Shown here in pieces: positions 3,376 to 37,344 of a DNA stretch of 64,000 nucleotides. This DNA comes from a virus (lineage: Duplodnaviria; Caudoviricetes), in IMG/VR virus record IMGVR_UViG_3300047576_000104, positions 36,989 through 100,988 of that record. One strand, written 5' to 3'. The translations under genes and the position numbers were made by a program. Position 1 is the stretch's first letter; each line of letters begins with the position of its first letter. Under the pieces are notes generated by a model that saw only the letters and a list, made by a program, of their open reading frames with translations, had not been told where the DNA came from and made no database searches.

Positions 3376-4495
3376 GGCCAAGCAGTCACTTCCCGAAGAT
3401 CCTGTACAGGCCCTGCTTGCTGAGGTCAACACGAAGTTCGGTGCCGGCACCCTGATGGAGATGGGCTCGGCTCCAATCGTCCCGGTGGAGGTGATCCCAT
3501 CAGGATCGATCGCCTTGGACAACGCACTTGGCATCAGCGGATTGCCGCGAGGCCGCGTGGTGGAAATCTTCGGGCCGGAGGGTACAGGTAAGACCACTCT
3601 GGCTCTTCATGCCATCGCCAGTGTGCAGCGCAACGGCGGTCACGCGGTGATGATCGACGCTGAGCACGCGCTTGATCTTGAGTACGCACATAACCTGGGC
3701 GTGGACACGGAGCATCTGCTACTGGACCAGCCGGACACAGGGGAGCAGGCCCTGGAAGTAGCGGACATGGTGATCCGGTCAGGGGTCATTGACCTCGTGG
3801 TGATCGACTCCGTGTCAGCACTGGTGCCTAAGGCTGAGATCGAGGGGATGATGGGGGATTTCCAGATCGGTGCCCAGGCCCGGCTTATGTCACAGGCGCT
3901 GCGCAAGATCACCCCGGCACTCAGCGGCACTCGGACCACAGTCATCTTCATCAACCAGCTGCGCGAGAAAGTTGGTATCGTCTTCGGCAACCCGGAGGTC
4001 ACGAGCGGTGGCAAGGCCCTTAAGTTCTACGCTTCGGTACGACTGGATATTCGCAAGAAGGACACCCTCAAAGAGGGCGTTACTGCAGTCGGGCATACCA
4101 TCAAGATTAAGGTAGTGAAGAACAAGCTAGCCCCTCCATTCCGCGAGTGCTTCGCGGACATCATCTACGGTAAGGGGATCAGCCGGGAGGCTGAGATCGT
4201 GTCTCTTGGCGTGGATTACGGGGTCATCGCGAAGTCCGGTGCCTGGTATACCTTCGGTGGAGAGCAGCTGGGGCAAGGCAAGGAAAAGTGCCGGCTAAGG
4301 CTGGAGGCTGAGCCGGAGCTGGCCAGTTCGCTGGAGAAGCTGGTCAGGGAACGGATGAGGGCAGCTCCGGCGACTGCCCGCCCTGTGCTAGTGCCGTCTT
4401 CGACGCTTGACCCGGCATCACTACTAGGCCCAGGATCTCTCGCAGACCTGGCATCACAAGAACCACTAGGAGGGAACGATCCAGATGTCCAATGA
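3365..4495 (+). CDS. recA: Recombinase RecA
   Basis: [65 protein letters not shown]. Confidence 0.97.
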
Positions 4496-5630
4496 CATTC
4501 TTGACCCGTCGATCGAGGAGATGCGGCCACGGCTGCTGACACTGGATCAGGCACGGGAGAAGCTGGCCAAGACCGAGCCGCTGAACGAGATGAAGTTCGA
4601 GGCGGGGGAGGCCGTTAACTTCATCTTGCCTGAGGATTGGGTCGATCGCGCAGATGAGCTGGACGGCATGGCCGATACGGGCGGCATCGTGACTCTGGCC
4701 AGCGGGCAGGAGTACCGGCTCACTAAGGATGCCCTGCTGGAGGCGGGAGCTAAGGTCGGCATTCCGCGCAAGCTGCAGGAGCGTACGCCGGCACCTCTGC
4801 TGGAGTCGTGGCTCAACTGGTGGTTCAAGGGCAACAGCGGCTGGGAGGGCAAGTCATTCAAGTCGTTCGTCAGCGGCGCGGACGGCTCGTCAGTGGCACC
4901 GCTGGTCATCGCGTTCGGATCCGGCACCATCCAGCCGTTCTCCAACCTGCAGATCCTGGATCAGCTCGTCGCCGGGGTCAAGCGGTTCTACAAGGCAGAT
5001 GAGCAGGATCTGCTGGTGGACTACAAGTTCGTGCACTCGCTGGAGCTGACCCAGGCCAGGATCGTTGTTCCCGGTGTCGTCCGGAACATCACCGGCCCCG
5101 GTACGGCACAGCCATCCGATCTGTGGAGCACGGGCATCACGTTCCGCAATAGCCAGCTCGGGCTCAAGCCGACCAGCCTGGACGGCTACCTGTTCCGGTG
5201 GCGCTGTTCCAACGGCATGACCGACTCCCTGGTCACCAGCGGGAAGTACAGTCGCAGGGACGGGGCTGACGGGGACGTGTACTCGTGGGCCAGGGATTCG
5301 GTGGATGAGATCCTTGGTGGCCTGGAGCATGCCCTTGACGGCGTGAGCGCCACTACGCAGATCCCGGTGGAGCAGGATGTCGGCCTGGTGCTGGATGACC
5401 TGTTCCGGCAGCACAAGGTCCCTGGCAGCCTGCAGCGGTCGGTGGTCCGGAACATGGCCGAGGTCGGCGGGGACCTGTCCATGTACACGATCCTGAACGC
5501 CATTACGCAGGTCGCCAACGACCCGGAACTTAGCCCGGATTCGGTGGGCAAGCTGATGCAGACCGGTGGCCACGTGGCGCATAGCGCCGAGATGCGCTGC
5601 GAGGCGTGCAGGAGGATCAAGCCAGAATGA
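4485..5630 (+). CDS. DUF932-like protein
   Basis: ITFRNSQLG...LFRWRCSNG motif and C-terminal '[13 protein letters not shown]' typical of DUF932/DUF945 proteins. Confidence 0.6.
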
Positions 5631-33875: not shown

Positions 33876-34108
33876 GTGAGAAGTTCAAGCGCCGTGAGAT
33901 CGCGATCAGGCGCGTGGAGTGGGCGGTTAAGCCTCCTGACCCTGAGGCTGAGGGCGACGATTACGATCGTTACGAGACTGATCGTCTTGCTGTGATGAAC
34001 CTGATCAAGGAGGAGTGTGGCAGTGCTACTCCGCATGACCTGCGGGTGATCGAGCAGCCTGACGAGACCATCATCAGTTATGAGATCAAGCGCGTAGTCC
34101 TGAAGTGA
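33872..34108 (+). CDS. Hypothetical protein
   Basis: Coupled ORF. Confidence 0.5.
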   Translation: MSEKFKRREIAIRRVEWAVKPPDPEAEGDDYDRYETDRLAVMNLIKEECGSATPHDLRVIEQPDETIISYEIKRVVLK

Positions 34109-35470
34109 TTAAGCCTGTTTACGCCGACGAGGACTTCGTTCTGTTTCATGAGAACTGCCGCAAGGTGCTTCCTATGCTGGCCGACGACAGCATCGACTCG
34201 ATAGTCTGTGATCCTCCGTATGAGCTGACCGCTGGAAAGAAAGGCGGAACCGGAGAGGCATCCCTTAATTTGAACTCGCCCGCAGGCCGGTCCCGTATCA
34301 GCACGGGTGGTGGCTTCATGGGTCAGCAATGGGATGCGACCGGAGTGGCGTTTGATCCTGCTACCTGGAAGGAATGCCTGCGCGTCCTGAAGCCAGGAGG
34401 TCATCTCGTAGCCTTCGGAGGCACCCGTACCTACCATCGCATGGCGTGCGCTATCGAGGACGCCGGATTCGAGGTGAGGGACTCACTCCACTGGCTGTAC
34501 GGCAGCGGATTTCCTAAAGGGCTAGATGTTAGTAAGGCTATCGACAAGGCGGCCGGGGCGGAGCGCGAGGTAGTTGGAAAAGAACATAGGGCCTCAGGTA
34601 ATGCTGTATACGATAAGCGGCCTTCTCGTCCTGATGGTTTGTATGCTTCGGATGATTACAATCTCACGGCTCCAGCTACTGATGAGGCGAAGCAGTGGTC
34701 CGGATGGAACGTAGCGCTCAAGCCAGCCCATGAGCCCATCATCCTCGCCCGCAAGCCCCTGTCGGAGAAGACCGTAGCCGCCAACGTCCTCAAGCACGGC
34801 ACCGGGGCCATGAACGTCGACGCCTGCCGGGTTGGCAGTGCAGACAAGCTGGTACGTCCTTTCATCCAGAGGGATGACAATGAGGTGTTCGGTAAGGGTC
34901 TTGGCGCGGGAGTTCAGGAAGAGCCTTCTGGCCGCTGGCCTCCTAACATCCTGCTCACCCACTCCGCTGACTGTGTTCCGATCGGCACGCAGAAGGTCCG
35001 CAACTCCAGCGGCAGCATCAAGGGCGATGAGCCAAGCGCGGTGACGGATGCTGTGTACGCGGAGCGGGAGCGGGTGCCCTGGCAGGCGCACGGGAGACGC
35101 TGACGGCATGGAGACGGTGGAGAAGTGGGAGTGTGCTGAGGACTGCCCGGTAGCGGGGATGGACGGTCAGTCTGGCATCAGCAAGAGTACGGTAGGCAAG
35201 CCTCGCAAGTCAGCTGCTCCAGGCGAGGGGTATGGGATGACGCATACTGGGGCTGAGCATGCAGACTCCGGTGGGGCGTCCAGGTTCTTTCCAACGTTCA
35301 GCTGGTCACCGGAGTACGACCTGCCTTTCTTTTACTGCGCTAAGGCTCCGAAGAAGGAACGCCCCAAGGTAGCAGCGAAGGTTATGCGATTGCGGGATGG
35401 TCTGACTGATGAGCAGCGTGTTTATGTTCTGGATGAACTTAGGAAGGCTGGCGTGAAAGACATTGTCTGA
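34105..35470 (+). CDS. N4/N6 DNA methyltransferase, N-terminal part (frameshift near 35095)
   Basis: SIDSIVCDPPY, RVLKPGGH, WLYGSGFPK, LKPAHEPIILARKP, GRWPPN, GGASRFF...FFYCAKAPKKERP. Confidence 0.88.
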
Positions 35471-36185
35471 TTCTTGCTGCGCAGCCTTCAGGGTTTGTCT
35501 TCAGGTCCGACTCCCAGATCCGTATGACCTGCCAGTCGCAGGCATGGATGTAGGCGTCTTGCGATTGGTCGAGTGCAACGCGGCGGAGGATTCGATCTTC
35601 TGCGCTGGTGCCCTTGCGGTCGTGCCAGTAGTCCCCGTCGAACTGGATGACCAGTTTGGAGGTTGGTACTGTGGCGTCAGGCGTGAACTTGCCATTGAAC
35701 AGGGTTTGACGTTCGTACGTGATGCTGAGACTGTCAAGCAGGGCGTAGCCTGTCGCTTCAAGGTTTGTCATGCGTCCTGTTTGTTGAAGGGCGTTCATAG
35801 CCAGAAGTCGGGCTTGCACTTCTGGATCGGCATCGCGGCAGGTGAGCGAGCAGTAGATGCGAGGCTGGCTTGTCGAGTGTTTGAACTCCTTGCTACAGGT
35901 CTTGCATACATCTTCGGTCTTGTTTCGGCCTTGCCAGGTGTTAGCGCAGTCTTGCGAGCAGAATCTTGTTGCAAGAAGCTCGGTACGACTCTTAATCACG
36001 TAAAACTCTGTACTGCATTGCGCACACAGGTATGTAGTTCCGGTTCGTCGCTGTGGTCGCTTGTGGTTTCGGTAGCAGTCCAGCGAGCAGTAGTGCTGGT
36101 TCGGTCTTGTGTGTTGGGTAACTGTCGTTCCGCAGCCATCGCAGATGAATGTACGTATCCTGTATCCTGCCGAACCTTTAACCAT
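35439..36185 (-). CDS. Antisense endonuclease: three Zn-finger repeats + DUF559/Vsr-like domain
   Basis: Repeated CxxC...YCSxxC; MTNLE...YERQ...FTPDA...IQFDGDYWH...QDAY...VIRIWESD. Confidence 0.85.
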   Translation of the reverse strand: MVKGSAGYRIRTFICDGCGTTVTQHTRPNQHYCSLDCYRNHKRPQRRTGTTYLCAQCSTEFYVIKSRTELLATRFCSQDCANTWQGRNKTEDVCKTCSKEFKHSTSQPRIYCSLTCRDADPEVQARLLAMNALQQTGRMTNLEATGYALLDSLSITYERQTLFNGKFTPDATVPTSKLVIQFDGDYWHDRKGTSAEDRILRRVALDQSQDAYIHACDWQVIRIWESDLKTNPEGCAARIRQCLSRQPS

Positions 36186-36232
36186 AACTCTTATCCTACT
36201 ACAACAGCAGGACCGTTTGGGGTGATAGGCTA

Positions 36233-36642
36233 GTGCGTGATCTGAAGCCAGAGGAGGTTCCAGCACATCTGCTGGAGTACTTCGAGGGGGTGAGGCCGAG
36301 TGGCGGTGGGGAAGTTTCCCACCCCACTTTAAAGCCGTGAAGCCTTTGACGCTGATGCGCTGGCTGGTGAGGCTGGTTTCTCCACCAGGTTCGGTCGTTC
36401 TGGATTTGTTTGCTGGAACAGGCACTACACTTCAGGCAGCCAGGGCGGAGGGCTTCCAGTCGATCGGCATCGACTCCTGGGCAGACGCTATCGCGCAGGC
36501 TTGCGCACGACTGGGGATTGAGGTGGAGCATGATGGAGACACTGAAGGAACCGGAGACGCAGACCCTGAGGTACCGGGCGGTGATGAGGCTGGCGTACAG
36601 CGTGGCCCTTCTGGAGCTGATGGAGTACGCGAGGGAGAGTAA
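36233..36642 (+). CDS. N4/N6 DNA methyltransferase, C-terminal part (SAM-binding); frame break at 36329-36337
   Basis: HPT/VKPLTLMRWLVRLVSPPGSVVLDLFAGTGTT...IGID. Confidence 0.85.
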
Positions 36643-36772
36643 GGCCAGTTTCGAGTTCGGGCCGATGAACCTGGATGCCCTGGAGAACCAGGGCCTGGTC
36701 ATCAGCGGGGACGTTGCCGGGGCCGCTAAGGTACTAGCAGGGGTAGAGGGTCTCTTCCTGTCGGAGGATTGA
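36532..36772 (+). CDS. Hypothetical protein
   Basis: ORF with GGAG RBS, coupled to next gene. Confidence 0.4.
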
Positions 36773-37344
36773 TGAGCAACATTCCTGCGCTTGTCCAGCC
36801 GGCCGATTACTTCTGTGTTTTCGTTGGTACTGAGATATCAAGGCTGATCGCTCTTGGCGAATGGCTGAACGGTGACAAGTTCGCGCAGACTCTCGGCAAG
36901 GAGTTCTCGCACGCGGGCATGGCTGTTGCTGTTACCAAGGGACTTGACGGTCCTCTGGTGGATATCGTGGAGGCATGGCCGAGCGGGGTGCGCCGGCTGC
37001 CATGGCACTACGACGGCCTGGCGAACGTCACTCTCTGGTCTACTGGAGTGCTGGAGCCCAAGGACAGGGCCGCTACGGTGAACAAGGCCAACGCCATGGT
37101 CGGGGAGCCGTACGGGTGGCTGAACTACCCGGCGATCGGTCTCAGGAGACTGCATGTTCCGGCACCGCTGCTCGACTGGTACGTCAGCAGAGGGAAGTCA
37201 GTGATCTGCTCTCAAGTGGTGGACCTGTCGTGGCGGGCCGGAGGCACGGTGCTCCGGCCTGATCTGGCTCCCGGGTACGTTACTCCGCAGGAAGAGGCTG
37301 ATCTGCTGATGGATGCCGGAGCTGTGCCGCTGTCTGGGCAGTAG
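36769..37344 (+). CDS. Permuted papain-like (NlpC/P60, YiiX-type) amidase
   Basis: FSHAGM...IVEAWP...MVGEPYGW...VICSQVVD (His before Cys). Confidence 0.75.
   Translation: MMSNIPALVQPADYFCVFVGTEISRLIALGEWLNGDKFAQTLGKEFSHAGMAVAVTKGLDGPLVDIVEAWPSGVRRLPWHYDGLANVTLWSTGVLEPKDRAATVNKANAMVGEPYGWLNYPAIGLRRLHVPAPLLDWYVSRGKSVICSQVVDLSWRAGGTVLRPDLAPGYVTPQEEADLLMDAGAVPLSGQ

Follow-up and report, generated by a model that had tools for sequence, protein, structure and literature searches.

How can a gene for a DNA methylase stay usable when a nuclease gene, encoded on the opposite strand, lies in its middle, and neither an intron nor an intein is present to take the interruption out again? This question is raised by a locus in a stretch of 64,000 nucleotides from a virus of the Caudoviricetes (hereafter the window, meaning the whole stretch that was analysed), which comprises bases 36989-100988 of the 100,988-base IMG/VR provirus record IMGVR_UViG_3300047576_000104 (CheckV 72% complete; 59% G+C) and whose DNA is also present in contigs of peat metagenome runs. 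A first-pass annotation, made from the letters of the sequence, had proposed that peptides added to the two methylase halves fold together and rejoin them with nothing else required. On balance, the locus is probably better explained as a homing-endonuclease cassette of the type known from MobA and gene 60 of phage T4, built from different parts, in which a short translational bypass would restore the reading of the methylase. The open reading frames (ORFs) of the window were listed, positions 34000-36800 were read, and the products of the window were compared with Pfam; in what follows L, P, A and X with a number denote loci, proteins, alignments and sequencing runs, respectively.

That a DNA methylase has been split into a DPPY half and an FAGTG half, as was originally suggested, is borne out by the ORFs and by Pfam PF01555, which is matched by both ends (profile positions 1-88 by the N-half and 166-216 by the C-half). 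The arrangement is that of the beta-class N6/N4 methyltransferases, with DPPY (motif IV) upstream and both HPTxKP (motif X) and FxGxG (motif I) downstream; between DPPY and its stop, the N-half contains the target-recognition part and an ..AKAxKKERP segment. The upstream boundary given before, a stop at 35468-35470, holds, but a single ORF from GTG 36233 to FAGTG does not exist, since this frame reads ..HPT, Leu-Lys-Pro and then TGA (36338-36340), and the C-part (from 36337) lies in another frame. Specifically, 8 additional bases sit between the HPT and VKP codons. The identical junction is found in contigs of two runs (X1, X2), and this frame break is real. The N-half of the window also spans two frames (34105-35103 and an ORF at 35048-35470, the second part being read from about 35091), with an extra A at 35095 (..CACGGG-A-GAC..) in the alignment with the closest homologue, P0001. 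Because an independent contig of the peat metagenome run X1, covering 34837-35354, has exactly one base fewer at this position, the 35095 break is probably an assembly error, or else a polymorphism or minority allele in the record. An RNA run (X4) contributed a single 167-nt contig over 35369-35503, a share too small to count as evidence of transcription.

The product of the minus strand is, according to a family model, structure matches and core motifs, an endonuclease of the Vsr/DUF559 (PD-(D/E)XK) type, which agrees with the antisense zinc-finger nuclease envisaged in the first-pass annotation. Four CxxC...CxxC modules are followed by a C-terminal Vsr/DUF559 domain with FDGDYWH. Pfam DUF559 (PF04480) is matched with 23.2 bits (cut-off 20.6), MTES_1575 and Vsr being matched below their cut-offs, and a profile of eight relatives matches the Escherichia coli Vsr structures 1cw0 (E 5.6e-6), 1vsr and 1odg, to E 8e-5, in addition to 3hrl. 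Alignment A1 shows no variation in FDGDYWH or in the R, D, Q, D and W-E further downstream. Two finer details reported earlier were found as described, namely the overlap of the 3′ end of the nuclease gene with the N-half, by 32 bp, and the hexamer TAGGAT ahead of its ATG. The latter recurs as TANNNT, 6-7 nt ahead of the start codon, in nearly all relatives, and a leaderless-type promoter of the nuclease gene's own is predicted from this conserved motif rather than from a mapped transcription start.

The same gene order (N-half with a C-terminal extension or tail, antisense nuclease, an ORF beginning with an N-terminal extension or head and ending in HPT-stop, then the C-part) is found in the mycobacteriophages Seagreen, Malithi and Willsammy, and scans based on the nuclease gave about 110 loci in viral, metagenome and genome collections, including a Rarobacter prophage and metagenome-assembled genomes of several phyla. 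Intact close homologues read ..AKAxxxERP, 5-8 residues and HPTVKP, with neither tail nor head. An empty site is provided by Girafales gp82 and Xeno gp59, which are intact and whose DNA is 87-96% identical to the Seagreen flanks: Seagreen has 970 nt where the intact gene has 21 nt, and the two sequences become homologous again 2 nt ahead of the Val codon. Applied to the window, this reasoning would place the cassette at about 35366 to 36336 (Table 1), and this stretch is, with high probability, a mobile endonuclease cassette. The full cassette is carried by at least 11 named mycobacteriophages that grow on Mycobacterium smegmatis mc2 155, close relatives of which have the empty site.

Table 1. 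Features of the interrupted methylase locus in the window, with the basis of each assignment
Feature	Position	Strand	Basis
N-half of beta-class N6/N4 DNA methylase, ending in the cassette-borne tail	34105..35470	+	ORFs; Pfam PF01555; homologue alignment (P0001 etc.)
Inferred mobile cassette (about 971 nt) with the tail-coding part, antisense nuclease gene, promoter spacer, head and HomR, hairpin and gap	35366..36336	.	Intact homologues P0003, P0005, P0010; Seagreen empty site
Tail (C-terminal extension, about 30 aa, LRxDLTxEQxxYVxxELxxxGV), then stop 35468-35470	35375..35467	+	Alignment A6; absent from intact homologues
Free-standing endonuclease gene, 248 aa	35439..36185	-	Pfam DUF559, MTES_1575, Vsr; structure-profile matches; PHROG 1271; alignment A1
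-10-like hexamer TAGGAT, 7 nt upstream of nuclease ATG	36193..36198	-	Conserved motif
Head (N-terminal extension), 32 codons from GTG: unique part with (I/V)PxHLxxYFE, then HomR	36233..36328	+	Alignment A2
GC-rich hairpin, 13 bp with one bulge, 3-nt loop	36299..36328	+	Folding; pair tables
8-nt coding gap TTAAAGCC, beginning with TTA and ending with GCC (landing triplet)	36329..36336	+	Junction table; runs X1 and X2 identical
Remaining C-half: VKPLxLMRWL..FAGTGTT, motif X and SAM-binding motif I	36337..36642	+	Pfam PF01555; alignment A4

Relatives of the nuclease also lie convergent just behind intact methylase genes (L009, L010, L015, L020, L045, L051 and L056), some with a ParB-like N-terminus; such copies may represent a free-standing precursor state, or may have a different target. 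They bear on the idea of a functional partnership, in which nuclease and methylase would act together, as a pair of the restriction-like or mismatch-repair-like kind, and the split would be regulatory. The classical Vsr is a partner of Dcm, and the family to which the present nuclease belongs often adjoins DNA methylase genes, including these intact ones. However, its occurrence is scattered over phages that are nearly identical and show clean empty sites, it has been lost from loci that retained all the rest, unrelated HNH nucleases use the same pair of extensions (see below for both), and Vsr-related nucleases are an accepted homing family (PMC2677866), so that a partnership of this kind is very unlikely.

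The junction between HPT and VKP was compared in 38 distinct lineages, which are not independent of each other. A stop codon (TGA, TAG or TAA) stands directly after the Thr codon of HPT in 36/38, TTA taking its place in the window and in L083. The gaps measure 2, 5, 6, 7, 8, 9, 10 or 13 nt, with all three frames represented, and even near-identical heads are followed by differing gaps (TAGCACC, TAAGGCC, TAGGCG, TGAATG, TAAGACC, TAGAACC). Downstream, the C-part is open and conserved: K, G and R are invariant and the FxGSG region is retained in alignment A4 (29 lineages), with a dN/dS of about 0.48 (this and all other dN/dS values are rough, dS being near saturation). With a stop after HPT in nearly all relatives, and a rare TTA together with a frame break in the window, the C-half needs either recoding or a third piece, and the original idea that the two halves suffice by themselves fails at this point.

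The bases around the gap are themselves patterned. The triplet before Val has the form [AG][CT]N in 37/38 lineages (background 0.25), and its third base agrees with that of the take-off codon, the last codon of HPT, in 30/32 cases for ACY and 6/6 for ACR. Five further lineages fit the junction pattern (in L048 both the take-off codon and the landing triplet are GCC). A GC-rich hairpin of 8-16 bp, ending at or including the take-off codon, is present in all 38 gap-bearing lineages, with a mean minimum free energy (MFE) of -24 kcal/mol over a 51-nt stretch and z below -2 in 37/38; in the window its 3′ arm consists of the His-Pro-Thr codons, including the take-off codon ACT (36326-36328). Four intact and two split but gapless methylases have no comparable hairpin (MFE -2 to -14, z about 0). 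Compensatory pair changes are seen at four synonymous positions (-10, -9, -7 and -1) and at the take-off wobble base (+2). In the likely genes of the window no sense codon is used less often than TTA (10 in 11,581 codons, 0.86 per 1000). The TTA of the gap could act as a slow or 'hungry' codon, after which the ribosome would land on GCC and resume at GTG 36337. For a -1 frameshift no conserved slippery heptamer was found in these lineages: U_UUA_AAG occurs in the window only, and the relatives have a stop and would need shifts of +1, -1 or 0.

A mechanism that accommodates these features can be outlined as follows. An antisense Vsr/DUF559 nuclease gene with its own predicted leaderless-type promoter has inserted in the linker that joins the target-recognition part to motif X (HPTVKP), so that about 970 nt stand in place of about 20 nt of the host gene. 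The cassette supplies (i) for the upstream half, a tail of ~30 aa and a stop, (ii) for the downstream half, a new start and a head of ~20 aa, (iii) a copy of the displaced linker ending in HPT, (iv) a hairpin with the His-Pro-Thr codons as its 3′ arm and (v) a stop codon (in the window the very rare TTA), followed by 0-10 more bases. The gap would break the coding DNA of HPT/VKP, which is probably the target of the nuclease, and would thus protect the carrier from its own enzyme. During translation the ribosome would stall with Thr-tRNA in the P site, and refolding of the 5′ hairpin would pull the mRNA forward; the peptidyl-tRNA would then re-pair on the (A/G)(C/U)N triplet before Val, and decoding would resume with HPT-VKP restored. 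Finally, the N-half with its tail and the C-half with its head would reassemble, aided by the tail/head pair, into an active methylase.

The third piece mentioned above corresponds to another route, in which translation ends after HPT, the head (~30 aa) is released, the FAGTG part is made separately, by termination-reinitiation or from a start of its own, and the three pieces assemble. The stop right after HPT in 36/38 lineages would suit such an enzyme, as would the calling of three genes by GenBank annotators, but the co-varying hairpin would have no role, nor would the conserved triplet before Val where it comes after an in-frame stop (TGA-ACC and similar), and the cut would lie in the most conserved motif of the S-adenosylmethionine (SAM) pocket. 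Start codons point both ways. While TGA-ATG-Val occurs in L070 and L103, GTG serves as the Val codon in 8 lineages, the window has a GTGA overlap at 36337-36340, and several lineages have an upstream GTG or ATG in the frame of the C-part, the Val codon is GTC, GTT, GTA, ATA or ATC (not a start codon) in 30/38, and in 12/38 that frame is free of ATG, GTG and TTG up to and including Val (in L075 and L087 there is none within 15 codons after it either). With no conserved Shine-Dalgarno spacing seen in addition, a three-piece or restarted enzyme is regarded as unlikely.

Several points nevertheless weigh against a bypass. Its support is comparative throughout, from lineages that are not independent. 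Only 12/38 landing triplets are true, synonymous Thr codons, the rest having G for A at the first position or U for C at the second (19/38 begin with G and 6 have a middle U); most landing triplets are therefore only near-cognate, and a G.U pair at the first or second codon position would be required for re-pairing. By its position, as the comparison with the empty site shows, the landing triplet is the Thr codon of the recipient itself, and its likeness to ACN and the agreement of the third base must for this reason stem partly from descent and shared codon bias; the third-base agreement, considered as a sign of strong covariation, was downgraded to weak support after the empty site had been mapped. 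Restart is possible in some lineages, namely those with ATG directly before Val or GTG as Val. The window has no stop and offers routes of its own across the junction, which are found in this copy only: the slippery site U_UUA_AAG, the GTGA stop/start overlap and a CCG-TGA...CCT hop giving HPTLKP/LTL... Finally, because some nucleases (L009, L010, L045, L051 and L056) stand behind intact methylases with an uninterrupted HPTVKP, the simple story in which HPTVKP is the target fits poorly.

Repair at the RNA level, with the gap or the whole insert being removed by editing or by splicing (as an intron, or as a core-less mini-intron helped by another ribozyme), was weighed against the same region. 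Although a hairpin in this place might, in principle, signal processing, all known introns are far longer than these gaps of 2-13 nt, the insert is filled by the antisense ORF, no second intron lies nearby, and Rfam gave no match, and hence no group I/II intron core, in 34900-36800 on both strands at E up to 1; this makes RNA-level repair extremely unlikely. Intein blocks are likewise missing from the tail-bearing ORF and the head, which have no Pfam match to them, no Cys or Ser at the junction and no HN+C/S/T. Here the first-pass annotation, which had seen neither an intein nor an intron core, proved correct.

Forms of the locus that have lost parts of the cassette are also found. In at least 8 further cultured phages (Daenerys, JoeyJr, Polka14, RitaG, PHappiness, Leperchaun, Harley and ShroomBoi) the nuclease is gone and the split, tail, head and gap are kept. 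In Daenerys (L296, 295-2200), for instance, 75 nt remain between the tail stop and the head start, and a 29-codon head ORF, the hairpin and the gap TAGAGCC are retained. In L022 (2888-4480, minus strand) the nuclease is reduced to a 16-codon remnant, and tail, remnant and head form one ORF of 526 aa, which ends in HPT-stop and is followed by an 8-nt gap; a word-based search with this segment for further fused tail-head proteins, weak as evidence that none exist, found L022 alone. In the AT-rich L052 and L063 the split is kept and the gap lost, with a head-like start, an uninterrupted HPTVK(S/P) and no hairpin, and L083 has an in-frame gap without a stop.

According to the dead-gene view, the methylase was inactivated by the insertion and its pieces seem conserved by hitch-hiking with a fast-spreading cassette. 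Methylases are indeed sporadic and often dispensable in actinophages (PMC9957025), and flanks near the cassette are co-converted in homing, but all pieces are open, with intact catalytic motifs, across lineages whose nucleases are only 40-58% identical, and dN/dS stays below 0.5 even with saturated dS. The split, tail, head and gap outlast the nuclease (Daenerys and the other cultured phages, L022), and the frameshift at 35095, which could be cited as a sign of decay in the record of the window, is missing from the independent contig. That the gene is dead is thus distinctly improbable.

The tail and head require separate consideration. As claimed at the outset, both halves carry added peptides; these are borne by the cassette, absent from intact homologues and conserved, with a dN/dS of 0.35 for the tail and 0.40 for the head. 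In alignment A2 (38 lineages) P, F and HPT of the head are invariant. The second part of the head, the replacement segment HomR (36287-36328), ends in HPT and resembles the short linker of intact homologues. A profile of the tail, run against 1.84 billion representative sequences, matched 222 clusters, almost always at the C-terminal end of the protein. Among the 150 best-scoring of these 222, about 4/5 have the match ending 14-16 residues short of the C-terminus, about two thirds represent the HPT/VKP site of methylases, and about 40 represent other DNA methylase split sites (right after (S/D)PPY, after CGAWxGxxGxEP, after WxNxGDSY and after RxxxDVWxI). Moreover, in L194, L204, L229 and L259, which belong to another methylase family, HNH endonucleases of several architectures lie antisense between the same tail and a downstream half that begins with the head motif, with no coding gap.

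Because the same pair flanks HNH nucleases at other split sites, the tail/head pair is, as judged from these comparisons, portable and independent of the nuclease family and the insertion site, while hairpin and gap are features of the Vsr-type cassette at HPT/VKP. The co-occurrence suggested earlier, with the tags flanking different nuclease genes, is borne out by these HNH loci; the hosts found so far are all DNA methylases. That tail and head act as assembly adaptors for the two halves is considered likely. Structure prediction speaks neither for nor against it: a complex prediction for the L103 N-half, head and C-part with alignments gave a score of 0.22 against a mark of 0.32, which is no evidence either way, and an AlphaFold2 model of the natural tail-head fusion of L022 (P0121) was uninformative (mean pLDDT 55, head region <50). 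A duplication as the origin of the two peptides, suggested by MAFFT placing tails onto heads, was dropped after hhalign of the two profiles returned a probability of 0.4%. Nesting of elements is seen in L229, where a second antisense zinc-finger HNH gene (4111-4746, minus strand) lies deeper in an SPPY-family methylase that already has a tail/HNH/head cassette.

The closest known system is the MobA element of phage T4. In a preprint (Manning and Atkins, bioRxiv 10.1101/2022.08.31.505936), it is described as a homing endonuclease that splits a topoisomerase gene (gene 39-gene 60) and is accompanied by a 50-nt translational bypass; the first ORF has a conserved C-terminal extension (CTE), and the N-terminal extension (NTE) of the second consists of a unique part and a copy of the displaced segment. 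In its bypass cassette, which the same text calls unique so far, a stop or hungry codon follows the take-off codon, the codons for take-off and landing match each other, the landing codon is where the insert ends, and a 5′ stem-loop has been put forward as the driver of forward movement. In its decay forms the nuclease, the bypass or both are gone, and secondary fusion occurs as well.

The present locus has in common with MobA a free-standing endonuclease that splits a conserved enzyme gene at a fixed site, a CTE, an NTE with a copy of the displaced segment, a gap after the take-off codon that is led by a stop or hungry codon, and a 5′ stem-loop. The decay series is matched too, with loss of the nuclease (L022, the Daenerys group), loss of the gap (L052, L063), a gap that is in frame and stop-less (L083) and secondary fusion. 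By contrast, the nuclease is an antisense Vsr/DUF559 enzyme with zinc fingers here and the HNH protein MobA in T4, the host gene encodes a DNA methylase instead of a topoisomerase, gaps of 2-13 nt stand against one of 50 nt, the take-off codon belongs to the 3′ arm of a hairpin upstream and not to the 5′ arm of a take-off stem-loop, the landing triplets are mostly only near-cognate, and bypass is proven in T4 and inferred here. As the parts (nuclease type, host gene) are not homologous, comparison of the sequences places the cassette as an analogue of the MobA element and not as a member of its family.

Other systems share some of these properties. In the nrdA gene of Aeromonas phage Aeh1, MobE likewise splits an enzyme gene as a free-standing endonuclease, with added tails and neither intron nor intein, and the terminal tails are needed for the activity of the reassembled enzyme; there is no coding gap and the tails are specific to the element, whereas here one tail/head pair is common to different nucleases and insertion sites (via bioRxiv 10.1101/2022.08.31.505936). 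In the same source, Manning and Atkins suggest that the tails of MobA and MobE may be a general means of keeping split ORFs functional. The first-pass annotation had regarded dedicated portable tags as not known to be described; with the CTE and NTE of these elements already on record (bioRxiv 10.1101/2022.08.31.505936), the add-on tail is not new in kind. The fractured genes described by Dassa et al. in 2009 (PMC2677866) are also phage genes in two pieces with a Vsr-related homing endonuclease between them, sometimes with its own control elements, but they are rejoined by trans-splicing split inteins, in place of which a 30-aa tail and a 20-aa head without intein blocks, plus a recoding gap, are found here.

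In the methylase family to which the present gene belongs, several selfish elements at fixed insertion sites have been described in actinophages by the Gogarten group (Willsammy and KilKor being in their set), including an intein, an in-frame LAGLIDADG domain and, in ShiLan, a hidden out-of-frame HNH gene on the same strand (PMC9957025, PMC11855218). In these two papers the words Vsr and frameshift do not occur, nor do Seagreen and Malithi in the former and antisense, DUF559 and bypass in the latter. Several carriers of the Vsr-type cassette contain a second selfish element in the same gene, an intein in the N-half at ..WxYG/../SGFPK (L003 1701-3881, L004, L008, P0001), which is the one described in PMC9957025. 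With regard to the gap itself, short 'stop-hops', in which 9 nt specify one amino acid, occur in synthetic E. coli constructs at low efficiency (cited in bioRxiv 10.1101/2022.08.31.505936). The 6-nt gaps of the present set (Thr codon, TGA, Thr codon, Val) have exactly this form of take-off, slow codon and synonymous landing; what the laboratory constructs do at low efficiency has its counterpart here in a natural and conserved arrangement that is accompanied by a hairpin.

What is at stake can be stated in a few points. To our knowledge, programmed translational bypass outside yeast mitochondria has for >35 years been represented by one family only, that of T4 gene 60 and its homologues. It is conceivable, and put forward tentatively, that the loci described here form a second, independent natural family of bypass-decoded homing cassettes, with a stop-hop of 2-13 nt and a co-varying 5′ hairpin, together with a universal adaptor pair by which Vsr-type and HNH nucleases that split methylases at several sites leave the halves held together without splicing. 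If a second family with very short gaps and another stimulatory structure were indeed at hand, homing cassettes protected by a hop would be a general strategy, and take-off and landing could be studied in a minimal system, the short-gap cassette. As a natural compact tool, the shared tail/head pair could also serve to reassemble split proteins. Because cultured mycobacteriophages hold the full, the nuclease-less and the empty-site forms, the bypass, homing, immunity and the role of the tags are directly testable; phages of the Daenerys group are useful natural controls.

At the level of annotation, such split loci are now filed as two or three unrelated small genes, often with the nuclease on the wrong strand. 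The strand opposite the nuclease is also open (window 35463-36233, plus strand, 256 aa; L002 3387-4175; L003 3874-4662), and in GenBank the entries of Malithi, Willsammy, Fishburne, Donovan and others list this shadow ORF as 'hypothetical protein' in place of the nuclease, while that of Seagreen is annotated as 'DNA endonuclease (vsr)'; in several other phages the gene is called on the wrong strand. The first-pass annotation had called the nuclease gene the only convincing one on the minus strand of the 64 kb; six other minus-strand ORFs of the window gave no Pfam match, and codon-position GC does not separate real minus-strand genes from shadow ORFs. No tRNA genes were found in the window. 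In some lineages the nuclease lies on the same strand as the methylase (e.g. L039 38-1078, plus strand; L052, L063). At the far end of the locus, an ORF without a PHROG match (36410-36772, plus strand) overlaps, in another frame, the C-part at its 3′ end of low complexity (from about 36530), and the neighbours of the methylase are genes with weak matches to head-maturation protease families.

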